35,497 nucleotides of DNA, taken from the NCBI GenBank assembly GCA_003614675.1, contig ML002379.1:1-35497 (forward strand), in the 5' to 3' direction. A program made the position numbers and the translations under genes. Below, piece after piece: positions 4,717-34,249 of this stretch. Source of the stretch: Dimargaris cristalligena. Lineage: Eukaryota. The notes below the pieces were generated by a model. That model did no database searches. It worked only from the letters and a program-made list of their open reading frames with translations, and was not told the DNA's origin. Each line of letters starts with the position of its first letter. The stretch's first letter is position 1.

Positions 4717-6863
4717 CTAATGAAGAAGGCGGGGTTCCTCGTCCTCATCGGGGTGATGCCGGTGGCTGTTCGACATGGTCCCAGCGGGTGGACTCGGGGT
4801 CCGCGTCAGAAGCGGTTTGATGAACCTATCATCAATAGATTGGATCCAGGCCTGCGCATCGTTCACCACAGGGGGTGCGTCGCTTGGGCCAGTCTGGGAA
4901 GGCACCATGGGGATACTCGTTTGGTGTAAAGAGGTTTCCACCGTATGGGCCCCGTCGGTGGAGGGCGGTGGCTGCTGGAATTCACCCCAGCGGGTGGCCG
5001 GGGACGGGTCCCTGTCGTCGAGGCTAGCTCGGCTCACTTCGCTGTCACTATAGGCGTCGTCGGGGGTCCGGAGTAGGCGGGCCTGGGCGGATGATCGTGG
5101 GGCGGGCGTGGGTTCAACGCCGGTCGGGATGTTCAGGGCCCGGATCACGGTCGGAATAGTCCCCCCGAAACCCACGACGCTCACCACCACTACCACCAGT
5201 ACCATGGCCCGGATCACATGGCCACTATGGCCCGGGATGTCCCCGGCCAGGGCAAAGGCCACCGCCCCGCGCAGCCCGGCCCAGAAAAGCATGGTCTGGT
5301 GCTCATAGGTAACGCACTTGGTCTGGCCCCAGATCCGGACGGTCACGTAGTTGAGTAGCCGGGAGAGGGGGAACACGGATACAAACCGGGCAATCACCAT
5401 AACCAGCACCATGTAGACAATAAACACGGGCTTGTAAATGGCCTCCATGTTGGTGAAGAGGGTGATACCCAAATAAAGGAAGATGAAGTTCTCGGACAGC
5501 TGGGACAGTACGTGGAACATGTCGTGCAGCGTGTCCCGAGTGCCGCGGGACATGTTATCAAACGCATAGTGTTTGAGGGCCATGCCGCAGAAAAGCAGGG
5601 ACACAATGCCCGACATGTGGATACCATTGGAGATGAAGTAGGTGTTGTAGGCCATCACGGTAATGAAGCAGATTTCCAGGTGGCGGTAGCGGTGCAGCTG
5701 GGTCATTTTAAGGACGAGGGCGCAGAGGGCCCCGCTGAGTAGGCCGAGGACCAGGGAGACGGTAAACACCAGGAAGAACAGGCCAATGATTTGAACCATG
5801 TTACCCATGTGCATGGAATGGCCCCGGAAGCGCTTGTAGGATTCGTACAGGACAATGGATACGGCGTCATTGAGCATGCTTTCGCCAAAGATGATGGTAT
5901 ACAGGCGGGGCTCGACCTTGAGTTGGTTGAAGATGGCCAGGACCGTGACCGGATCCGTGGAGGACAGGATAGCCCCGACCATAAGGCATTCGAGGAAACT
6001 CAGGGAGAGATTCTCCAGGCCAGTGACAGAGTACAGATAGGCCAAAACACTACATATCGGGGGAATAGCGAAGCCGTCGAACAACAATGGCAGCAATGTC
6101 AACGAAAGGAATTAGAGACCCCGTGGTAGAGGTAGGGTGCGGCAAATGGTGGGCATTGCAGGATCGGGCATAGTCAGGGATACTTACCCGGTAAACATCG
6201 CACTGATGAAGGTTCCCACAAAGGCAAAGGCGAATATCGGCACGGCCAGGCTAAAGAAATCTTTCTGGAGAGATGGGTAGGATAATCATTACCATCGCCA
6301 TTATCATAATAATAACAACAATAACGGTTGGCTATAGAGGGTTAGTATAGGGGCAAATAAATACAGAAAGAGAGGACCAAGGAAGATTCGGAAGGATGCA
6401 GGATTTACCTTGTTCAGAGAATAGCCACAGTTTAAAATGATAGGTGGTAGTAGCATGTTGAAGAAGTAGGTGTGGTCAAAGGTCACCATATCCCGGATAT
6501 GGTATAAATTGGCGACGCGGATAAACAGGCCAACCAGCATCCCTGTGAGTGGACGGAACCCCAGACCAGGCAAGATATTATGTAAATACATTAAGTTGAA
6601 AGGTTAGTTTGGAGGCTGTAGGTATATGAGTGTGTGGGCGGACCAGCCCAACGAGTCGAGATGGAGTACAGACTAGAATACTTACCGGCTAGCAGGGCGA
6701 CCACGGATTCGTGGATGACCTGGATTTTACGCCGCTGCAGGAAGTAGCTTAGTAATAAGGAGCAGGCCATCAGAGTGAGCAGCAGAAATAGGGCCCAGCT
6801 GGAATACAATTCCTTTCCCTCCTCGTCATTCTGGCGGCGAACTACAGCCTGTAGTGGGTCCAT
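4717..6863 (-). CDS. NHX1: Endosomal Na+(K+)/H+ exchanger (CPA1 family), 4 exons, 573 aa
   Basis: Exons 6863-6686, 6542-6409, 6264-6188, 6049-4717 are in frame. Motifs IHESVVALLAG, FFNMLLPPIILNCGY, SSTDPVTVLAIF, FGESMLNDAVSIV, WAGLRGAVAFALA; many TM segments. Confidence 0.95.
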
Positions 6864-7582: not shown

Positions 7583-9164
7583 ATGGTCGTCATCCTCGCC
7601 CCCAAGCCACAAATGCTGGTTCTCGTCGGCTTGCCCGGCAGTGGCAAGACCGCCTTCTCCACCCTGCTCTGTTCCTTGGACAAGGTAAGCTTATGAGCGT
7701 CTTCTCTTTGCCCTAGTCAAGACCCCGCCCCCCCTGGTGGTGCTGCTCATTCACCCCTCCCGACTCTAACCCCCCTCCTGCCACTTTCACTTGTATGCGA
7801 ATCTTATCGTCCACTTCCCCACCCACTCCGAGTAGTCCTGGGTCCGAGTCAACCAGGAGGAGGTGGGGTCCCGCTCAGCCTGCGAGGCCATAGCCGCCAA
7901 GGCCCTCAAAGAAAACAAAAACATCGTCGTCGATCGCTGTAACTTTGACGAAAGCCAACGGAAAACCTGGGTAAGCCTCGGTGAACAGGCCGGTATACCC
8001 GTCGATGCCTTATTCTTTGATATTCCCACCAAGGTGTGCCAGGATCGTGTGCTGAAACGCTCGGGCCACCCCGCCGGGGTCGAGGGCAAGTTCGGGGCGA
8101 GCGTGGTGACCCGGTTCGAGTCCATCCTGACTCGTCCCACTGTGTACGAAGGTCTGCGGATGATCCACAACATCGGCACCCATCTGCCCAACCGCCCCAA
8201 GGTTGAGGAAGTATATACCAAGGAAACCATGATTAGCATCATGCGCCTGTTCCCGCCAGCCAAAGCCCCGGCCCCCGCCAAACCTGCTTCCAAGCCGGCC
8301 GGCAAGCCCGCCACCCCCGGCGGTAACCCCAAGCCCGACGAGGATGCGGAGAAGAAGAAGAAGGCCGAGGCTGTCATTTCCCACTTTGGCCACGATCACG
8401 GCCATCCCCACCACCATTTCCACCACTCTTGGCAGCACCCTCACGCCGCGGCCGGTAGTCCGCCGCCTTCCCCGCCGTTTGGTGCCCCCGCTGGCCCCAA
8501 AAACATCAGTGTCCTGGCCAAGCCCATCGAGGGCCACGGTACCTTCAAGGAAAGCAAGGGTGTCTGGGAGGATGAAAACAACAACAAGCACTACAACCAC
8601 AGTCTGTACAATGAACACGCCGAGCAGGAGGCCGATGGCAGCAAACACCTCGATCGCCATACCCGCCATCTGCAGCACAGCGACCATATCAGCAACCCCA
8701 TCGCCGGGTTCCAGCGTGCCTTTGACCACCTAACATTTGACCGCCAGGAGGAGGGCCACGAGCTGGGCAAGGACGGCAAAAAGTCCCACTTTTCGGACAA
8801 GTCGCACTTCTACCACCAGAGCGAGCATGAGGAGGACGCCAAAAAGGGCACCATGAAATCCTACGAGCACAAGCACGTCAACAACATGCGCCATATCCAT
8901 AGCGATAAGCCCGACCGTAGTCGCATGGAGGGTTTCGAACACCGCTCGTTCAACTACGCTTACAAGGGCGACGAGTTCGAGCCGTCGTGCATCATGGACA
9001 ACTCGTATGGGGGCAAGTCCAAATTCGACGACGAGATCAAGGCCAGCTTCCACAACCTACCGGCCCAGGAACACTATTCGTTCGGCCAGAAGATTTCGTG
9101 GGAGGGTGGTCTGCCCCCCAAGCCCAAGATGCCCGGGGTGAGTTTTATGCACCCACCCAAATAA
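7583..9164 (+). CDS. P-loop nucleotide/polynucleotide kinase-like (AAA_33-type) domain fused to a His-rich C-terminal domain, 2 exons, 476 aa
   Basis: Exon 1 (7583-7684) encodes MVVILAPKPQMLVLVGLPGSGKT (Walker A). Intron 7685-7835 (GTAAGC..TAG). Exon 2 (7836-9164) has WVRVNQEEVG, IVVDRCNFDESQRKTW and CQDRVLKRSGHP, then a Pro/Ala/Lys linker and a His-rich tail. Confidence 0.88.
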
Positions 9165-9205
9165 ACGCCCCTGACCCACCTACTTCCCCACTTTTTTATA
9201 TAACG

Positions 9206-9232
9206 TATATATATAGATATATATATATATAT
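9206..9232. repeat. (TA)n microsatellite, imperfect
   Basis: tatatatatagatatatatatatatat, just 3' of the kinase gene. Confidence 0.8.
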
Positions 9233-10007
9233 TTACATATTCTCCGCCTTTTTCTTTTGTTATTAATGGTTTTTGTTTTCTGCACCATGGTCTTGGCCCG
9301 CATTCCTCCATGTCCCTGATTGGCACGACTTCGTTTGATGATTACTTTGATCACCCCCCTCCATTATTCTATTCTATGATATCCGAATTCTTTTGCTACG
9401 TTTTCACGACTGTTCACCTTTTCTTTCCTTCCGATTCTTCCCCTCGCGGTGCTCCTATAATCGCACCCCCCTATCTTTATTATAGGTATGGACAGTGCTG
9501 GGTTGAATTCCCCCGCACTTGCCGCCGGCCACGCCAGCCGGTTTCCTAATAAATCATTACCCACTCAGTGCCGCCATTTGGGAGAATCTGGCCTGCGTCA
9601 AATGAATTGTGTCAACACACACCCCGTTGCATATGGTGTCCTGCGCGGTGGGATTCGTGCATTGTGCTTGGAGGGATAGGGCTTACAACTGAATACTTGT
9701 CATATCCCACTGGCCAATGGCGTGGGTATGACTAAGCCAGGTAGGTAAGTAGATTGGTGTAAAGGGGGAAAAGGGCTGCTTTTACTGTTTTACCCGCTCA
9801 ATAGAGGCGCTTCATCACCACCACCACCACCGTACCTTCAAAGGGGAAGTAGACCGTAGTAGCAGAAGCCCTCTCCGAGCAGCGACCCCTGCCGCTGCTG
9901 CAATTTACCCTCTCCCCACCGTTGCTGCCTACCCTTATTGTGCCCCACCACATTCCCATTGGGTTCCTTGGCCCCTTTGTCTGTCTCCATTTTATTTATT
10001 TATTCAG

Positions 10008-11510
10008 ATGGCGCTTGCCACCTTTCCCCCACAGCGCAAGGCTTCCACGACTGCTCTATTGGACTTTGCCCTGGACGGGCCAGCGTCCCAGTCGTCCGAC
10101 TATGATTCCGAGGAGGAGGAAGACGAGGTAGCTTGGCGGCCTAGTCCCCCCTCCGCCAAGGCACTCCGCTTACTTGGCCTCAGCGCACCGCCCTCGTCTC
10201 CACTGGTAGCGGCGAACAGCCACGTGGTTGGACCAAGAGAGGAAGAAGCTGAGGAAGAAGAGGAGGAGGGGCTGTCCTTCCTCGAGGGCTTGGCCCTATC
10301 CGTCGAGCCCTCCCCAGCCACCTTGAACCCTACACCTAAACGGAGGTTCCGACGGTACCCGGCGTCTTCCTTCTCGTCATCCTCGGACCACACCGTAGTT
10401 TCCCTTCCCGTCCCGGCCAACCAGGCGGCCTCGGCCCGTAACAAATTCAAGCCCTCGTTCGACCTGCCGTCCCCTATCGAAACCCTCCCGGATATGCACT
10501 CCCCCCTGCCTACTACCTCGGGCTGGTTTTGGGAGCGGTCCATTGCCGCCAATGTGCACTGGTTTCGCCGCCATGCCTTTCATCCGCCCTACCATCCCTA
10601 CTTTTTTCTCCAGTGGCTCTTCTGCGTCCTCATTTTCTTTGGCCAATTCCTCTACCAGGGCCGCTTTGTGCAGGACCAGCCCGCGGCCTTCCGCGCTGTC
10701 TACGTTGTTGGTATTCTCATGAGCTTATGCACTGGCCTTCTGAACATCGCCGTCTCTGCGCTGGATCCCACCGATCCGGTGGTCAAGCAGGCCGCCGTGC
10801 CCCGCAATCCCGTGTACGATTTGACCCCTGGTATTCTCGTCAATAACCTGGTCACTGGTGTGTGCGACGTGTGTTTGGTCCAAACCGACTTCCACACCCG
10901 CCATTGCAAGCGCTGCAACCGGTGTGTGGCCGGGTTTGACCACCACTGCAAATGGCTCAATACCTGCATCGGCAGTCGCAACTACCGCACCTTCATCGCC
11001 CTTCTGGCGGTGGGCTGGATAACCGCCCTCGGCTACCTGGCCAACTCCATTTACATTATTTACCTGTTCTTTTACCAAAAGGACGTCTATTTGCGGCGGG
11101 TGGCCGATATATTTGATTTAGACACCCCGCAACCCGATGCCCGGGCCTCCGCCGTCATCGGGGCCGACGTTTTGGTAGGCTGTCTGACCTTTTTGAACTG
11201 GATGGCCGTCTCGGCCGTCACCCAAATTCTGGTGTTCCATCTCCGCCTGCGCCGAACGGGCCAAACCACCGTTGACTACCTGAATGAGCTTGACGACCGC
11301 CGGCACGCCGAGGCCCACCTTCCCCCCGGGGTCCCCACCACTGGGCGGGTCCGGTTCCTTCGTCGCCTGCAGACCGTATCGAATGCAGTCCGCCATACTA
11401 TCCGCCGAGTCCTTCGCCTGCCGAATCCCGCCAATGGACCGACCGATCTCCCCTATTCGTATTGGAAACCGCCACAACAGCCGGAGCCCGTGCCTCTCAA
11501 TGCGCTTTAA
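10008..11510 (+). CDS. DHHC-type protein S-palmitoyltransferase, 500 aa
   Basis: Cys-rich domain CDVC..HTRHCKRCNRCVAGFDHHCKWLNTCIGSRNY, four TM segments, TTxE-like TTVD motif, acidic disordered N-terminus. The ATG directly follows an acceptor-like ttattcag, so an upstream exon is possible. Confidence 0.93.
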   Translation: MALATFPPQRKASTTALLDFALDGPASQSSDYDSEEEEDEVAWRPSPPSAKALRLLGLSAPPSSPLVAANSHVVGPREEEAEEEEEEGLSFLEGLALSVEPSPATLNPTPKRRFRRYPASSFSSSSDHTVVSLPVPANQAASARNKFKPSFDLPSPIETLPDMHSPLPTTSGWFWERSIAANVHWFRRHAFHPPYHPYFFLQWLFCVLIFFGQFLYQGRFVQDQPAAFRAVYVVGILMSLCTGLLNIAVSALDPTDPVVKQAAVPRNPVYDLTPGILVNNLVTGVCDVCLVQTDFHTRHCKRCNRCVAGFDHHCKWLNTCIGSRNYRTFIALLAVGWITALGYLANSIYIIYLFFYQKDVYLRRVADIFDLDTPQPDARASAVIGADVLVGCLTFLNWMAVSAVTQILVFHLRLRRTGQTTVDYLNELDDRRHAEAHLPPGVPTTGRVRFLRRLQTVSNAVRHTIRRVLRLPNPANGPTDLPYSYWKPPQQPEPVPLNAL

Positions 11511-12084: not shown

Positions 12085-12888
12085 TATATTGAAGACCAGC
12101 TATGATTGACCCTGCTACCCAACAGTACACTGATTGCCGGCCTAAGTAGGTAATAATTACTGTCTCATCTCCAACTGGAGTAGGCCTTTCTCGCACCACT
12201 TGGTCAAGGATTGCCATTGAATCTTCCCACAACCCCGCCAACAATGCCATGAACCTTTTAGGGTTATTGCGGGCTTTGTTTGCATGTCCTCGAATGCAGA
12301 CGCCTGCACCCGTAGATTCGGACTTGGCTGGCGCGATGGGGCTTACGCTAATTAGGTTTTCGCTAGGGTCATTGGAGTTAGGTGACCGACAGGATTGAGT
12401 ACCGGCCATAATCCCGTCCAACGAAATGTCAGTCATCGACTGTGCTTAGGGTGTTTGATCTCACTGTGCCATGATTTCCCTCGATTCCTCGTACTATCCC
12501 CGCCACTCACTAATGAGTAGGGTTATAACAACAACCTAATTCGCTGCACTTGTATTTGAAACATTCAACGGGGCAAGTCCACTTCTAGATCCCCCTTTCT
12601 CACCCAACATCCGTCGCCTTTTTTTTGGGGGGGTGTGAGGGGGGGAGGGTCGGACCCTACGCATGGGTTGGCCTGTATATTTCACCCTCTGCTTACACAT
12701 GGTAATATTTAAGGCCTCAAAGGCCATCTTCCGCCTGGCTTACTTTCCGGCTTTGTTCTTTGCGTATTGATCTTCATTCCCCCCCTAATTAACCACCGGT
12801 CTACTTGGTGGGTAGCCCCTCAGCCAACTATATCGAATTATTAGACATTTTCCCATTACCCGGGCCTTTTCACGAGACTTGGCGTACC

Positions 12889-14550
12889 ATGCTTAGTCGG
12901 TGGTGCGCTCGGGTGACCATTATAGCCCTGGGTTTGTGGCTGGGGTGTGTTCGGGATAGCCAGGCCTCACTAACGACGGTCGCCACTCAGGAAACTTTCC
13001 GGGCCTATGACTTTCCCCGCAACGATGACCACCCAGCACCGGGGCTAAGTGCCTTCTCCGGCCATCTATTATTAGCCTCCGTGGATGAGAACTGCCACAT
13101 CCAGGTGGATGACTCAAAGTATCCCAGTATTTTGGGTAACAATGGGCCGCGGAACGACTCGCTGGGCACTATCCTCGCGTACGTCGATATGTCCAACTTG
13201 CCAAGCATCAAGTGTCGCCGTTTAGTATCCGTACTTGAAGTCAGCCAAGGTCTCGAATCCATCGACGCCCTCGTTTTCGCCTCGATCCACGACTCCGACA
13301 CCGACTTTGGGGGACTCGACGACATTAATTTGTATTTCTACCGGGAGGCCTTGCCCATACCCCAGTTTTTATTGGCAGTGGGCCAAGACACGGGCCAGAG
13401 CCTCTTGCGCCAGCTTACCGAACACCCCGCCCCGGAGGGGATTTCCGTGACCGGCGTGTGGGACGACAGCCCCTGGACGGTTCTGGCCGGAAGCGTGGGC
13501 TTTCTGTTTGTCCGCTGGCTCTTCTTTGCTATCCGCGTGTTAGCGGCCTTGTATGTGACGTACCACATGTTTACCATGTACCGCCTCTCCTGCTTCCGCT
13601 ACTCGTTCAAATTCCTGGTCTTTACGGCGATTCTAGTCCACCTGGTTGCCTTTATGATCGGACCGCTGGAGCTATATATTTACCGCTACCAGGCCTGGCT
13701 GTTCCTCATTGGCTGGTTTGCGGTCAATGCGGCTTTTTACGCACTAATTCTACGGTGGGCCCGGGTGGTGCGGTCCATTTACCCCTGGAAATGGCTCCGG
13801 TTCTTCACCGCTCTAGCCCATGTCGCCTTTTACGCTGTCTTCATCACTCTCTTCTTCACGGGCCTTAATTACTTTACCTTGCCCAGCCGGGAGTTTGTGT
13901 CCGATTTCGGCAACATTTTACGCACCTATGTCGTAACGTCCCTGACGGCCATCCAATCGGTCTTCTTCACAACAGTGGGGCTAAGGGTCGTATTCCTCCA
14001 ATGGCGTCAGTACCGTTCGGACCCGGGTGCCATGGCTCTCATTAAATTGACCCTGCTATGCCTGTTTTCCATGTTTGGCTGGCTACTGCTATCACTGGTG
14101 CTGGTCCTCATCCAAACTGTTTGGGCCGTTCCCGATGTGAAAACCTACCTGGGCCGGATTATTTGCTCCCATATCGCCAGTCTATTGGCGGTTTTCGCGG
14201 TCTTTTGGAATATGACCGTGTCAGGTGTCGATTCGCATTCATCTGACCCGTCCGGCCAAGCCCGGACGTCGCTGGGTGGTCGATTGGGCAGTGTCCACCT
14301 ACAGTCCTGCAATGGCCACTTAGTCGACACGTGTGCGTCAACCCCACGCACCTCGCGCGACTGCGTTTCGGACGTCCTCGAAAAGGATTGCAAAAACCCT
14401 CTGTCCGAAAAACCGGTTAGGTTGTCGATTCTTCCCTCGGTGTCGCCGAGACCCCGTCATCTCAGCCGGTGTGAACCTGAGCCGCGGGCTCTGAATGAGG
14501 ACCCACCTACTTTTGGGACCGAATCTTATGAATGTAAAGTACTTATTTAG
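12889..14550 (+). CDS. Signal peptide + PA-domain-like ectodomain + 7-transmembrane receptor-like protein, 553 aa
   Basis: First ATG at 12889 (accATG). Signal peptide MLSRWCARVTIIALGLWLGCVRDSQA, ~170-aa luminal region, seven hydrophobic segments, Ser/Pro-rich cytosolic tail. Single exon. Confidence 0.85.
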   Translation: MLSRWCARVTIIALGLWLGCVRDSQASLTTVATQETFRAYDFPRNDDHPAPGLSAFSGHLLLASVDENCHIQVDDSKYPSILGNNGPRNDSLGTILAYVDMSNLPSIKCRRLVSVLEVSQGLESIDALVFASIHDSDTDFGGLDDINLYFYREALPIPQFLLAVGQDTGQSLLRQLTEHPAPEGISVTGVWDDSPWTVLAGSVGFLFVRWLFFAIRVLAALYVTYHMFTMYRLSCFRYSFKFLVFTAILVHLVAFMIGPLELYIYRYQAWLFLIGWFAVNAAFYALILRWARVVRSIYPWKWLRFFTALAHVAFYAVFITLFFTGLNYFTLPSREFVSDFGNILRTYVVTSLTAIQSVFFTTVGLRVVFLQWRQYRSDPGAMALIKLTLLCLFSMFGWLLLSLVLVLIQTVWAVPDVKTYLGRIICSHIASLLAVFAVFWNMTVSGVDSHSSDPSGQARTSLGGRLGSVHLQSCNGHLVDTCASTPRTSRDCVSDVLEKDCKNPLSEKPVRLSILPSVSPRPRHLSRCEPEPRALNEDPPTFGTESYECKVLI

Positions 14551-18337: not shown

Positions 18338-19272
18338 ATGAGCGACCCCTTGGAAGACCTCATTCGGAACATGTCGTCTGCTCCGGATGAAACCGCCCAA
18401 GAGCAGCGGCGGAAACAGCTGGACCAGGACCTCACTTCAGACGAAGATGACCACGATAGTGCAGAGGCTGAACCGTCCCTCTACACCCGGGAGCTAACGG
18501 ACGGGCCCCAAACGGGACCTAAAGGGGTTCTCGCTGACTATCGACACTTTAAAGCTATTCAGCAGCAATACCAACGCCAGCCTCGGTCCCAGCCCCCGCC
18601 CCGGGAACCGACGCGTGGGGCCGAGTCAGCAGACGACTCGGAATTCGATGACCTACTCGACGACGAGGTCCTACAGCAGTACAGCCAGCAGCGGCTGGCC
18701 GAGTGGCAAGCGAACCAAAAAACCTTTGGTACAGTGGAGGAGGTGGCCGCGGACAGCTACGCGACCACGGTGGACCAGGAGGCGCCCACGGTGCGGGTGG
18801 TAGTCCACGTATACGACGACTCGGTGGCGGTCTGCCGGCATCTCAATGAAATGCTGAGTGGGCTGGCCCGGACGCTTCCTCACATCCGGTTTATCAAGAT
18901 TCAGGCATGGGAGACGGGCCAATCCACGTTTACCCCAGATGTCCTTCCGATTTTGCTGGCGTACCAGGACGGCCTGTTGATTGATACGGTTATTCGGGCG
19001 GCCGACCAACTGCCGACTGGCCACTTTACGGCGACAGACGTGGCTAACCTGCTGCAAAAGTAAGTCGATAACGTTCCGTCACCCCATGTCCCTCGTTTCT
19101 CAGTTGCTGGGCTATGCCGTTCTGGAATAACCCTCCCCCCCCGGTCGTTGAGCCTAGCTGATAGATCCTAACTCCCCCCATCTATACGCTTGTTTGTTCA
19201 TAACATGATGCCTTCTCCTCTCCCGCCTTCTTCAGGACCGAATTGCTGCCAACCACCACCACCACCAACTGA
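18338..19272 (+). CDS. Phosducin-like protein (PhLP1-type, thioredoxin fold), 2 exons, 252 aa
   Basis: TGPKGVLADY motif, acidic DDSEFDDLLDDE, VVVHVY..C..LNEML..LA and DVLPILLAYQDG. Exons 18338-19059 and 19236-19272 (GTAAGT..TTCAG) are in frame. Confidence 0.92.
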
Positions 19273-24492: not shown

Positions 24493-27098
24493 CTATTTGT
24501 AACGGAACCGCAGGAGGGGCGATAGCTCCTTTAATGGCCCGGATTTGGTCAAAAACTCGTGGCGTAGCAAATCAGTGGAGTTCGCCCGGCTCGTGATGTC
24601 CACGCACAAACATTCGGCAAGGAACGACTTCAGCTCAGGACTGAGTACTTCGGGCTTCTTGAGTGTGGGGGTTCCGTTGGTGGCAATCAAGTACAGGGCC
24701 TTGAGGGGTTCCTCATCCAGGTATGGTGGCTCGTTCTCAATCATCTCAATGGCCATGATACCGAGGGACCAAATGTCAACCTTGGGTCCGTAGGACTTTT
24801 GCTTCACCACTTCGGGCGCCATCCAGTACGGGGTACCGACCATGGTCGAGCGTTTACTGTGGGCCTCCGACAGTTTGGCGCAGAACCCGAAATCAGTAAT
24901 CTTAACCTGTCCTTCGATGCCCATCAGGATATTGTCACTCTTGATGTCCCGGTGGATAATGCTCTGGGAATGGAGGTGTTGTAAGCCCTTGGTAACTTCG
25001 AAACAAATCGTGGCAATCTGACGCTCCGAGAGATTATTGTTGTCAATGATATCCGTGAGAGCACCGCCCTCCATATATTCCATAACCACCCAGAGCTCCA
25101 TGCTGTGAATAAGGAAACTCTCAATGTAGTTGACAATATTGGGGTGCTGGGACTCTTTCATCACGATAATCTCATTGACTAGGAGCTCCTTCCGGGGTTG
25201 GCTGGACAGGTCCATCTGTTTGATGGCGACCTTCTGGCCGGTGGCCAGCGACCGCGCCACGTAGACGGAGCCCGACGCGCCCTGCCCCACCTTCTTAATC
25301 TTCTGGTACAACACCTTGGGATCCTGCTGCGACACAATCGAACGGAGCTTGGTCATGATTTGGGCCTCCGACATGGTCGATAGCCGCTGCTCCTTGGGAG
25401 GCGCCTTGGGTTGAACTTGGAGGTTATTCATTTTACCGGTCAAGGCGGCCAGGGCATCGCTCTTGGCCTTTTCCACCGATGACTGCGACGAAGGGGCGGT
25501 GGGTGGGGCTTGGGCCATGCCTGCAACCGGTAGAGTGGGAGTGGACAGTTTCTGATGCAGGCTAGTAGGTTCCTGGTCGAAAAGGACCGACATACGCTGG
25601 GGGAGTTCGGGTAGCTTGGGGGAGACCCGTTTGGGGGCCGGGGGATTGGTGGGCCGGGAGTGCGTATAAGCCGGGGAGGCCGGCGCAAGGGCCGCTGGTG
25701 GGGGAGGTGGCGGCGGTGGGGCCACCGAGTAGGCACCGTTGGTGGGTTTAGGCAATTCCTCGGGAGGCCAGCCGCCTGGCGGGTTGGAGGTGGTAGGGTT
25801 CTTGGGAATAAGTCCCTGCCATTTCCCAGGGGGTTGGGTCATACCGTACATATCCGGTGCAGGCTCCTGTTCGTTGTTCTTCGTGTAAAAGTCCAGAACA
25901 TCGAGTACGGCTTGCGGGTTCTTGGTATAGTCGTCCTTCGTAATAGCGGACTGCTGGAGCAGCTTGGCCCATTGGTCAGGCAATCCCTGTGGACCAGCAA
26001 ATCGTCGGTAGAAGTGAGGCATAGGGTAGGGATCAAGGCAGTCCCGATATATGAAAGTGTAAGTATGGGGTTAGGGATAGTTCAGTCGATCCAGGCAGGC
26101 CTGCGAGTGAGACGGGCCTAAGCCTACTTTTGTGAAAGGCTGTAATGAGGGGATGGTCGATGACTTACCGTGAACATGCCGCTGAGCTGGTCAAAGCCCA
26201 CGTGGACCTTGTGTTGGAAGTCCGTTGGACTCGAAACATCCATTATAAGGGGGCATCTCTATCAACCGCGGGATGTAGCATTGCAGTTGGTCCATAGCAG
26301 GGGGTATTAGGCCAAGGCGGATAAACAAATGGTGAGAATCGCCAACGTATACCGGGTTAGCACGGGGGAGGGGTTTGGAAACTATTCACCCACCCTATAA
26401 ATATCCAGAGGGTCCTTTTGCCTTGGGTTGGATTGGGGAGGGAGATACCCATCCGAGTCAAGTCAGAACATACCTCATAGATGGCATCGAGCCACGAATA
26501 TAATTCCTCGTCACCTTTGCAGGATAGGTAGTAGTCCTTGTCTTTGGTCTTGATTTCGATGCAGTATTGGCGAACCTGGCATCGCGAAATACCGATCACA
26601 TCTTTTAGGAAAATGACCGTATTGGCTTGATAGGTATTCTAAAAGGGGGAGGGGGAGTATATATAGAAGAGGGGGCGGCAAACAGGGGAACCGACCAAAT
26701 CCAAAGGAAAAATGGGCCCGGGACTCGTTGGTGAGAATATTGCTTGGAACCTGTAGTAGCACAAGTGGCCTTGGGTCACCAAGTCGCGCTCCACTGCTGA
26801 CTGGAGTCCTCGACAAGGCGAAAGAGGCACGTCCAACTCGAGCGGAGGGGCGCACCATCTGGTAAGTAGGGCCAGAGGGGCTTTGGCGCCTAAGGCGGTT
26901 CGCGTCCAGATGAGGGGGTAGCGGGGTCATCTGGAGGACCATCTCCCAAATACACGGGCGGCCGGCTGGAATACGTACCTCATTGCGATGAAAAGTTATG
27001 GTGCCCTCGCGCAGTAGGGTCCAACGCTTGGACCACAGCCAGGACCGGATCCCATCCTCTTTGATTGACAGGTATCCCTTTTTGAACACCGAGGTCAT
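24493..27098 (-). CDS. CLA4: Cla4-type p21-activated kinase (PH + CRIB + Ser/Thr kinase), 4 exons, 622 aa
   Basis: Exons 27098-26979, 26638-26474, 26258-26169, 25986-24493. PH domain ([28 protein letters not shown]), CRIB ([16 protein letters not shown]), kinase motifs [26 protein letters not shown]. Confidence 0.96.
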
Positions 27099-32164: not shown

Positions 32165-34249
32165 CTACTGGCGGGTGAGGTAGCTAAGGAGATCAATCTT
32201 CGTCACCACATGCTGTACTTTACCGGAAGTGGCTTCAGCGGGCCGGGCCGTCACAACGGCTGAGCTGTGGTGATCAAAGAAGGACGACAGCTGGCTCAGC
32301 GGAGTGGCGGATGTAATCTCCAAAAACCGACCCTTACCCGGCTGGAAGTGGAACATGGCCCGATCGACCGAGGAGTCCAGGCTGGCCTTGCCATGAGAAA
32401 CGCGCGATAGGATGTTGCCCAGCGTAACTAGACCAACCAGTCGGTCTGTGTGCGGATCAAGCACAGGGAGCTGGTCAAAGTTGTTGGTCTGCATCACCCC
32501 CATGGCCTCCCGGCAGCTCGAGGTCGAAGTAACCGTGACGGCTTGCGGTAGGTGGAGGTCCGCAATGGTGGCCCCTCCCCACTGCTCCACCTGGCGGTGC
32601 TCTTCCTCCTGGGCGCGTTGGTCCAGGAACTGGTGGCGCCGCATCCAGTCATCATTGAGAAACTTGGTCATGTAGTTGCGGACGGAGTCGGGTAGAATGA
32701 CCACACAACGCTGGCCCTTCTTAAGCTGACGAGCGGCCTGCAGGGCTCCGGCGAGGGCACTCCCCGAGGAGCCCCCCGACAAAATACCCTCCTCTTTGAT
32801 AAGGCGGCGGGCTAGGGTGAAGGAGTCCTGGTCATTGCTCTTGTACCACGTGTCAATGACGGACCGGTCCAGGGCCTCGGGTATGAAGTCGTAGCCAATG
32901 CCCTCCACCTGGTAGGACTCCACATTGCCGTTTAGATTCTCGGGCTGGGCTAGAATCGAGCCATGGGGGTCCACGCCCACGACGATACACTGGGGGCACT
33001 TTTCCTTGATCTTCTTAGCCACGCCCGTGATGGTACCACCCGTACCAGCTCCGGCGACTAGCATGTCGATATGCCCGTCACAGGCCTCCAGGATTTCTTC
33101 GGCGGTCGTATCGTAATGGGCAATTGGGTTATACGGGTTGGCGTACTGGTCTAGAATCACGGAGTTGGGGATTTGTTCATTGAGTCGCTTGGCCACGCTA
33201 ATATGGGATTCGGGGGCATCGTAGGCCGCCTCCGTGGGAGTACGGATAATTTCCGCGCCCAGGGCCTTGAGTACATCTACCTACACAAGAGAGACACGGT
33301 ATGGTGGAAAGGGTATATAAAAGGTGGAAAGGGGTTAAGGTTATCATGTAAGGCAAACCAATGGTAATGCCAAATTAGGCAAGGGGATATATATATATAT
33401 GTGAACGGATTAGTTAATAGTATTGATTAGTTGCGGGTTTTACCTTTTCTTGACTCATTTTCTCGGGCATTGTGATAATGGCGCGGTAGCCCTTAACGGC
33501 TGCACACAGAGCCAGGCCGATACCTAGTGGGCACCAATCAATAGGCAGACAAAGCAGTCAATAAAACAGAGGGGTGAGATGACGCCATTTCAATAGGCGG
33601 TATGTAGGGGTGTGGTAACACAGTAATAAACTGATAAGTGGTACCATTTCCGCCTTCAAGTTGGACAGTAGCAAGGCATCGGAAATGCAGAGAAGGGGGT
33701 TTACAAGGTTTGATTGCAGTCCACGGGCGACTTACCCGTATTGCCGGAGGTGGGTTCGATAACCGTATAGCCGGGTTTAATAATACCCTTGCGCTCGGCC
33801 TCTTCGAACATGCGCTTGGCAATGCGATCCTTGACTGAGCCACCGGGGTTAAAGAATTCCACCTTGGCCAGGACCTCACACTCCAGGCCCTCAGACGCAG
33901 GGATGCGGTTAAGCCGGACCAGGGGGGTGTCGCCGATCTGGTCCAAGATGGAGTCGAGGATTTTGGGCTTTGGCGTGCTGTTAGGGTTAGAGGGGGTCAG
34001 TAATAGGTAGGTGCCAGCGCATAAGTTCAGATTAGTACAGCAATAGAGGAGGGCATATACAGGCAGTTTAAGTATTTCTTAGGCGGTCCTCGCCCAGGGA
34101 TTCACATTGAGCTACCAGTAACCCCAGACCAGGGGTGGTAAGAGCGGGGTGGATCATACTTACCGAGTTTGGTGGACATGGGGGATGGTCACATTGGTGG
34201 CGGCATTGCCAACTGGACCGTGGCAGTGACATTCAGTGGGGGAACCCAT
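32165..34249 (-). CDS. CYS4: Cystathionine beta-synthase with C-terminal CBS (Bateman) domains, 4 exons, 507 aa
   Basis: Exons 34249-34164, 33977-33736, 33523-33444, 33280-32165 are in frame. PLP-lysine motif [47 protein letters not shown], then a CBS pair ([23 protein letters not shown]). Confidence 0.96.

Follow-up and report, generated by a model that had tools for sequence, protein, structure and literature searches.

The KIN family of fungal polynucleotide kinases was characterised only in 2024, as candidate tRNA-splicing enzymes of fungi in which the Trl1 ligase was split up (Ghosh et al., RNA 2024; PMC11571804). In Mucorales, KIN is a stand-alone protein of 163-208 residues that phosphorylates 5'-OH RNA and DNA with a strong preference for GTP and substitutes for the kinase function of Trl1 in yeast (PMC11571804). 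RazKIN, the enzyme from Rhizopus azygosporus (PDB 9D8A), has a P-loop with GSGKST, a lid that contacts GDP with Arg99 stacked on the guanine and Arg103 placed on the phosphates, and a G-loop Ser146 that explains the GTP specificity (PMC11571804). Asp36 is essential, activity being abolished or nearly so in the D36A and D36N mutants of MciKIN; D36E goes unreported in the mutagenesis section of the paper (PMC11571804). Kinases of the same fold also occur in larger healing enzymes: in Trl1 a 2H cyclic phosphodiesterase (CPD) follows KIN on the C-terminal side, mammalian PNKP combines a 5'-kinase with a 3'-phosphatase and Clostridium Pnkp has a 2',3'-phosphatase (PMC11571804). The recognition of the RNA acceptor by KIN enzymes is described as unexplained (PMC11571804), and the 3'-healing CPD of fungi with split tRNA ligases as unidentified (PMC11571804; PMC10946435). 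KIN has been implicated in tRNA splicing (PMC11571804), while a 2026 preprint places it nearer to the DNA-repair enzyme Pnk1 and treats its in vivo role as undecided. Here we describe a gene of Dimargaris cristalligena that encodes a KIN-family kinase tethered to a conserved, lineage-restricted, His-rich and beta-rich domain. It lies in a stretch of 35,497 nucleotides (GenBank assembly GCA_003614675.1, contig ML002379.1, positions 1 to 35,497, forward strand), which we call the window and to which all coordinates refer.

The gene occupies window positions 7583-9164 on the plus strand and consists of two exons with a predicted product of 476 residues. Its parts are as follows:

7583..7684, plus strand: exon 1, with the start codon and the first 34 residues, including beta1 and the P-loop; it matches AAA_33 and other P-loop profiles.
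7628-7651, plus strand: P-loop GLPGSGKT, within exon 1.
7685..7835, plus strand: intron of 151 nucleotides, with a GTAAGC donor, a branch-like site CTCTAAC at about 7764-7770 and a TAG acceptor.
7836..9164, plus strand: the whole of exon 2, a single open frame of 442 codons and then TAA.
7836..8255, plus strand: kinase part of exon 2 (its residues 1-140), supported by AAA_33 and by the ungapped alignment to 9DRZ and 9D8A.
7857-7859, plus strand: the Glu of NQEE that stands at the catalytic Asp36 site of Mucorales KIN in the ungapped alignment to 9D8A and 9DRZ.
7932-7943, plus strand: acidic motif DRCN, in exon 2.
8046-8048, plus strand: lid arginine R71, equivalent to RazKIN Arg99 in the ungapped alignment.
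8058-8060, plus strand: lid arginine R75, equivalent to RazKIN Arg103 in the ungapped alignment.
8256..8477, plus strand: variable linker (exon-2 residues 141-214), recognised by composition, low identity among homologues and a low predicted local distance difference test score (pLDDT).
8382-8444, plus strand: tract of 21 residues within the linker, HFGHDHGHPHHHFHHSWQHPH, with 11 His.
8517..8975, plus strand: His-rich beta domain (residues 14-166 of the translation of 8478-9161), supported by AlphaFold2 strands and conservation.
8976..9164, plus strand: conserved C-terminal segment KFDDEIKASFHNLP...ISWEGGLPPKPKMP and TAA, with near-invariant residues and, in the prediction, two short low-confidence helices followed by coil.
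9162-9164, plus strand: stop codon TAA.

This gene model is supported by comparisons with homologous proteins. Searches of the window by tblastn with the homologues P0001 and P0007 aligned in two frames that are split exactly at the intron 7685-7835, and the spliced junction is colinear and gapless relative to full-length homologues (...K|SWVRVNQ in the window, ...K|NWVRINQ in P0001). The ATG at 7583 is the first in-frame one downstream of a stop and gives an exon 1 translation that runs MVVIL...GLPGSGKT...SLDK; an alternative ATG at 7613 gives an N-terminus, MPQ.LVLVG, that resembles those of the homologues, and either of these two may be the start codon. A preliminary description of this DNA, made from its letters alone, had proposed a single gene of 476 residues in which a P-loop kinase is followed by an unrecognised His-rich domain, and the two-exon model has precisely this length. 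That the fusion is an artefact of two adjacent genes is ruled out because the frame of exon 2 is unbroken and the architecture is kept by the homologues: of 20 recovered, from Dimargaritales, Kickxellales and Harpellales, 19 have AAA_33 together with the C-terminal region, the remaining record being partial.

Homology assigns the N-terminal domain to the polynucleotide 5'-OH kinases of the KIN family of fungi. Exon 2 matches the Pfam AAA_33 profile (PF13671) with E 6.2e-10 and 40 bits against a gathering cut-off of 27, the exon-1 P-loop aligns with positions 1-20 of that profile, and NCBIfam gave for the kinase only sub-threshold polynucleotide kinase matches (TIGR01663 and TIGR04075). Far more specific was a search of PDB sequences with 7836-8255, which recovered 9DRZ (E 1.4e-26) and RazKIN, 9D8A (E 5.6e-26), PNKP and Clostridium Pnkp following at E about 3e-4. 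A profile of the kinase family gave the same ranking, with E 3.2e-48 and 1.6e-46 for the KIN structures, 6e-17 for PNKP, 2e-11 for the kinase of Clostridium Pnkp and 0.0013-0.027 for that of Trl1. The AAA_33/PNK-like kinase with GLPGSGKT and DRCN that had been proposed earlier is thereby confirmed and narrowed to a specific family. The P-loop, the DRCN motif and the two lid arginines are all preserved: DRCN is invariant in an alignment of 14 sequences, in which R71 and R75 are near-invariant, and the two arginines align without gaps with chain positions 101/105 of 9D8A (native 99/103). We infer that the kinase phosphorylates 5'-OH polynucleotide ends. The HMMER alignments end at chain residues 140-145, short of the G-loop Ser146 region, and the residues past HLP are variable among the homologues.

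At the Asp36 site the window protein has a Glu, aligned with the first Asp of NQDD in 9D8A and 9DRZ. The replacement is conservative and follows the phylogeny of the family. Our tree, from which P0010-P0012, P0014, P0015, P0024 and P0026 were left out, has a duplication at the base of Dimargaritales, with the window gene in one of the resulting clades (clade A, support 99/96) and its paralogues in the other (clade B, 98/94). Glu is found in all three clade-A members that show the site, namely the window protein, P0001 and P0007 (NQEE/SQED), and Asp in all four clade-B paralogues and in the full-length copies of the other orders that cover the site (NQD[DE]). The Glu may hence reflect a sub-functionalisation that followed the duplication.

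The kinase is separated from the C-terminal region by a linker of 74 residues, 16 of them Pro and 11 His, in which a Pro/Ala/Lys-rich part, described earlier as PAK-rich, is followed by a KKKK run and then by the His tract. It is the least conserved part of the protein, with 11-48% identity to the homologues, and is predicted to be disordered, its pLDDT being below 50 in the models. A His-rich linker is seen in Dimargaritales alone, the linkers of Kickxellales and Harpellales being rich in Lys, Glu and Val.

Beyond the linker comes a tail of about 215 residues, which we number from the translation of 8478-9161 and which falls into the beta domain and the C-terminal segment. The beta domain is unusually polar: 20 of its 151 residues (13%) are His and just 29 of the 151 are hydrophobic. 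Sixteen of the 20 His are kept in at least 20 of 23 sequences, and many Glu, Asp, Arg, Gln, Asn, Tyr and Phe residues of the tail are likewise invariant. If one sets aside the long-branch Zancudomyces copy P0022 and the kinase-less Ramicandelaber copy P0021, the identity of the beta domain to its homologues is 79-87% within Dimargaritales and 56-64% to Kickxellales and Harpellales, which equals or exceeds the 54-69% of the kinase; to the two long-branch copies (P0021 and P0022) it is 45-48%. The C-terminal segment of about 55-60 residues is also conserved, with identities of 44-83% (26-32% to the two long-branch copies), a pattern KF.DEIKASFHNLP...W....P.KP and invariant or near-invariant residues at D185, I187, K188, A189, S190, F191, N193, L194, P195, W208, P213 and P216.

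None of the searches related this tail to a described family. The window tail matched no Pfam or NCBIfam family at E<=1, nine of nine tails taken from across the family matched no Pfam family at E<=10, and a search of PDB sequences returned nothing beyond a chance row at E 6.7. The best ESM Atlas value for the whole tail was 0.77, which is below the level of a lead, and the beta part had no usable match to the named clusters of the Atlas. Neither a paper describing the fusion of kinase and tail or the beta domain, nor one on Trl1 in Zoopagomycota, was found in our literature search, in which PMC11571804 was the one relevant use of the KIN names; the accessible text of PMC11571804 and PMC10946435 does not name Kickxellomycotina, Zoopagomycota or any fused form, and in that of PMC9866270 the words kinase, histidine, septa and plug do not occur. 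The tail and the fusion architecture are new, and the kinase is a new, slightly deviant member of a known family. A clear tandem repeat within the tail was considered and rejected: the Smith-Waterman score of the tail against itself is 65, compared with 41.5 +/- 8.1 in 100 shuffles (maximum 70; z about 2.9), and of six non-overlapping pairs of hairpin-unit profiles one aligned in hhalign at E 1.4e-4 (52.7% probability) and five at E>=0.009, so that the self-similarity is too weak for a simple repeat.

AlphaFold2, run on the tail with an alignment of 23 sequences, predicts a simple meander of seven long strands in antiparallel order (residues 22-31, 37-53, 56-73, 78-96, 102-120, 125-141 and 149-163), with pLDDT of 81-91 across the ten-residue blocks from 21 to 160, a predicted template modelling score (pTM) of 0.59, and pLDDT below 50 over the last 57 residues. 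The beta-hairpin-like pattern and meander suspected in the preliminary description reappear in this model as long hairpins, and all five of the turn-like motifs singled out there (EDENNNKH, EADGSKH, GKDGKKSH, EDAKKGT and SDKPDRS) fall at turns between its strands. The same description had further conjectured that the domain is lineage-specific and of a kind not described before, and this is borne out by the family searches above and by the distribution given below. Nor does any of the three outcomes apply that it had named as refuting: the tail has no Pfam match, is conserved and predicted to be ordered, and does not belong to a separate gene. In a model of the full-length orthologue P0001 the kinase has pLDDT mostly of 86-96, the linker is disordered and the same tail strands recur at lower confidence; its pTM of 0.41, together with the disordered linker, points to independent domains.

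An idealised hairpin register, from which we assigned residues to the two sides of the sheet by reasoning rather than from model coordinates, gives 11 of 59 and 16 of 56 hydrophobic positions on the two faces, and 30 of 59 and 26 of 56 positions that are at least 90% conserved. On the same register the strands would line up cross-strand rows such as S42-H67-H84-Q114-H131-N159 and H94-H104-H141-R149. The two faces would thus be polar and equally conserved, which makes it unlikely that such a sheet is stable alone. The alternating hydrophobic strand face expected of a transmembrane beta-barrel is not seen in the tail. Comparisons with known structures gave no close relative: Foldseek against the PDB had no match at E<=0.001 for the tail model, with a TM-score of 0.18 in the top-ranked row and pore-state hairpins in the top rows, and an exhaustive VIA search, bearing mainly on the residues before the last 57, matched nothing but segments of large membrane barrels: BtuB with Z 10.4 (root-mean-square deviation 5.5, 134 residues aligned), SprA with Z 8.4 (3.5, 141 residues aligned) and autotransporters.

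The phyletic distribution of the tail is narrow. A word-indexed search recovered 20 proteins among 278 candidates, all from genera of Kickxellomycotina (Tieghemiomyces, Dimargaris, Dispira, Coemansia, Kickxella, Dipsacomyces, Spiromyces, Furculomyces and Smittium). Among 1.84 billion representatives scanned exhaustively with phmmer, five clusters contained the tail, and four reached E<=1e-30. Four are made up of Kickxellomycotina proteins and the fifth is a weak metagenomic match. A profile search among proteins of 89-387 residues gave three tail matches, none of them additional. Further genera with the tail are Zancudomyces, Ramicandelaber and Mycoemilia. The taxonomy was checked for Tieghemiomyces, Ramicandelaber and the classes of the subphylum, and the remaining genera we take to be placed in Kickxellomycotina as well. 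The tail is therefore found almost only in this subphylum, the exception being the one metagenomic protein.

A few members depart from the common architecture. The Ramicandelaber brevisporus protein P0021 (339 residues) has the tail without the kinase, behind a His/Gly-rich N-terminus (HHHVHH, GHGHGHGHGH), and the metagenomic protein P0023, from a 1-kb contig, has a divergent tail, scoring 43.8 bits with the tail profile and preceded by a Gly/Phe-rich region; these kinase-less copies with low-complexity N-termini speak for the autonomy of the tail. The N-terminal region of P0021 begins with MSGKS and ends with FEVPAKPEKPK, which resemble a P-loop remnant and the LFPP.K motif at the end of the kinase. 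This would be explained by decay of the kinase domain of P0021 or by an error in its gene model. The second Harpellales copy P0022, from Zancudomyces culisetae (463 residues), has DGYN for DRCN and NKD for NQD, has lost several conserved His of the tail and is set apart in the tree by its long branch (1.71); this paralogue has probably degenerated or become neofunctionalised. Outside the subphylum, the closest kinase homologue in the size range searched is P0026 from Calcarisporiella thermophila (262 residues, 43% identity), which has a short Gly/Arg/His-rich C-terminal tail (for example RRHYGGNRGYHGGRSHHEDR) without homology to the beta domain. Among longer proteins, the kinase has its nearest relatives in P0027, P0028 and P0029 (764-778 residues, 38-42% identity), which are Metallophos-X-kinase proteins with an N-terminal calcineurin-like phosphoesterase, about 400 residues without Pfam match (E<=1e-4) and a C-terminal kinase, a domain order that differs from that of the known bacterial Pnkp. 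The source labels of the homologues do not fit their domain content: 'Transcription factor' is the name given to several, and a Zancudomyces copy is entered as 'Bifunctional polynucleotide phosphatase/kinase'. The former label was presumably propagated from the plant AAA_33 protein bHLH140, and we did not use it as functional evidence.

Taken together, these observations lead us to favour, tentatively and with somewhat less than even confidence, the explanation in which the tail would serve as a module for assembly or docking, dependent on metal or His, and so place or concentrate the kinase. The tail would be an autonomous domain of about 150 residues, followed by the conserved C-terminal segment and tethered by the disordered linker. 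Its sheet probably pairs, closes up, binds metal or docks on a partner; the His rows would coordinate divalent metal, and this, together with self-association or the docking, would satisfy the polar faces. In this way the tail might concentrate or position the kinase at broken RNA or DNA ends or at the tRNA-splicing machinery, and the linker, with its His tracts, may act in supplying or sensing metal or in a response to pH. The preliminary description had also conjectured a self-assembling domain responsive to pH or metal and, as a possibility, a structural or storage system; since the kinase belongs to the KIN family, we expect nucleic-acid end healing in place of such a system.

Several points weigh against this explanation. 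Metal binding, oligomerisation and partner binding of the tail are conjectural, a two-copy prediction of tail residues 10-228 (score 0.00, without controls and with the single-chain fold itself uncertain) speaking neither for nor against them. The mean pLDDT of the five tail models ranges over 53.6-71.4, parts of the tail stand at 52-59 in the full-length P0001 model, and the flat open sheet may be an incomplete picture. The structural matches probably show no relationship, only a geometry common to gently curved sheets built of long hairpins. An even spread of conservation across the two faces is also what an enzyme with another fold might show. Few of the His in strands 4-7 are left in P0023, so that the His rows would be dispensable in some members. 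As for the kinase, the in vivo role of KIN itself is contested between tRNA splicing and DNA repair, and the Glu in place of Asp36 leaves the activity of the clade-A paralogue putative.

An alternative, which we regard as unlikely, would make the tail a new kind of enzyme for 3'-end healing that uses His or metal chemistry, either a 2',3'-cyclic phosphodiesterase or a 3'-phosphatase, and the protein bifunctional, in analogy to the KIN-CPD half of Trl1, to PNKP or to bacterial Pnkp. Kinases of this fold have repeatedly been fused to unrelated 3'-healing modules (Trl1, PNKP, Pnkp), and a partner enzyme for the split tRNA ligases of fungi is still sought (PMC11571804; PMC10946435). The tail occupies the place that the CPD has in Trl1 and offers 16 conserved His along with invariant Glu, Asp and Arg, and the nearest longer kinase relatives are the Metallophos fusions described above. 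However, no phosphoesterase family was detected, the Pfam searches of the nine tails having been empty, and in particular Pfam and NCBIfam gave no match of the tail to tRNA_lig_CPD/2H, Metallophos (PF00149) or HAD 3'-phosphatase profiles. The 2H family requires two H-x-T/S-x motifs; the tail has a single conserved H-x-S/T-x motif (H155-R-S157, in FEHRSF). The 2H fold is bilobed and alpha+beta, whereas the AlphaFold2 model of the tail is all-beta; no 2H structure was among the Foldseek or VIA matches listed, which by itself excludes little. The predicted fold, moreover, is an open polar meander without a pocket. Finally, no homologue of the tail was detected in Mucorales or elsewhere beyond Kickxellomycotina, bar the metagenomic protein, and the tail cannot therefore be the missing CPD of Mucorales. 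The bolder form of this idea, that the tail is an unprecedented type of 3'-end healing, a fourth kinase-fused solution besides 2H, HAD and metallophosphoesterase domains that supplies the missing fungal activity, appears decidedly unlikely to us.

We give similarly little credence to the tail being a nucleic-acid-binding domain for substrate recognition, which would bind tRNA exon halves or damaged DNA and present the 5'-OH to the kinase. It would address the unexplained acceptor recognition of KIN enzymes (PMC11571804), a flexible tether suits a binding module, and the strands bear conserved Arg, Lys, His, Tyr and Phe. Yet the beta domain is not basic, with a pI of 6.6 and 27 Asp+Glu to 23 Lys+Arg, and no known nucleic-acid-binding family was matched in Pfam, NCBIfam, Foldseek or VIA. 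The stand-alone Mucorales kinases, moreover, act on RNA and DNA without such a domain (PMC11571804).

It is still less probable that the tail is largely disordered and of low complexity, with the beta-meander an artefact of AlphaFold. The polar, His-rich composition would fit disorder, as would the appreciable spread among the AlphaFold2 models, the low confidence of the last 57 residues and an ESMFold2 pLDDT of the chain below 50 in at least one run. Nevertheless, the tail is as conserved across the subphylum as the catalytic domain while the disordered linker diverges, its weak self-similarity is not that of a simple repeat, and the pLDDT of 81-91 extends over about 140 residues from just 23 sequences. 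Hardly credible, in our view, is a self-assembling structural protein, such as the septal pore plug of Kickxellomycotina with the kinase as passenger or regulator: the named range of the domain is a subphylum defined by plugged septa (PMC3734964), both polar faces are equally conserved, as lattice contacts would be, and stand-alone tails occur behind low-complexity N-termini, but the link is purely correlative, codon bias gives no sign of unusually high expression, and 19 of 20 homologues keep a catalytically plausible RNA/DNA kinase, as one would expect of a protein that acts on nucleic acid.

On codon usage, strong C/G-ending had earlier been taken as a hint of high expression. This does not hold, as the G+C fraction at third codon positions of the gene (0.77) is near the window background, the 12 other long open reading frames ranging over 0.53-0.76. 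Long antisense frames at 7787-8377 and 8010-8729 have no support of their own, and we infer that they are by-products of a GC-rich coding strand. Directly 3' of the stop, at 9190-9240, is a (TA)n-rich, microsatellite-like stretch in the presumed 3' untranslated region. The neighbouring genes in the window are ordinary eukaryotic ones without a functional tie to the fusion gene:

4717-6102, minus strand: Na+/H+ exchanger.
10008-11510, plus strand: DHHC palmitoyltransferase.
18338-19063, plus strand: phosducin-like protein.
24493-26022, minus strand: PAK-type kinase (PBD and Pkinase).
32165-33196, minus strand: protein with PALP and CBS, cystathionine beta-synthase-like.

A further open reading frame of 581 residues at 12805-14550 (plus strand) matched no Pfam family at E<=0.001.

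The subphylum-wide fusion of a KIN-type kinase to an equally conserved, undescribed domain offers a 'Rosetta-stone' clue to the working partner of the kinase. Were the tail catalytic, it would represent a new class of phosphoesterase and bear on the missing 3'-healing enzyme; as a metal- or His-driven assembly module it would represent a new soluble, all-polar beta architecture. On either reading the beta domain merits a family entry of its own, and it might serve as a clade marker.

With membrane barrels and pores (BtuB, autotransporters, SprA, MACPF/CDC) the tail has in common only the generic up-and-down arrangement of long strands; unlike these, it has no hydrophobic face, signal or transmembrane features, and it stands behind a kinase of soluble type. 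To PNKP and the bacterial Pnkp the kinase is homologous, and it is likewise joined to a second module, but this module is unrelated to theirs, the window protein having none of their HAD, FHA or metallophosphoesterase domains. The KIN-CPD part of Trl1 (Candida albicans 6U05, 6TZM) offers the same order, a P-loop kinase and then a His-bearing domain of about 200 residues. However, the tail shows no similarity to the 2H CPD and is predicted to be all-beta, the window protein is without a ligase domain, and its kinase is much nearer to KIN and PNKP than to the Trl1 kinase. The closest system is the KIN of Mucorales (MciKIN, RazKIN 9D8A, 9DRZ), which, like the window protein, comes from an early-diverging fungal lineage and has a homologous kinase with the P-loop, the NQ-acidic motif, DRCNFDE and the HPTGV region of the lid in common. 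Mucorales KIN has Asp36 where the window protein has Glu, and no counterpart of its Ser146 of GTP specificity is recognised among the variable residues past HLP, the alignment to 9D8A having ended before that point. What in Mucorales is a stand-alone enzyme of 163-208 residues is here extended by a 74-residue linker and a tail of about 215 residues.

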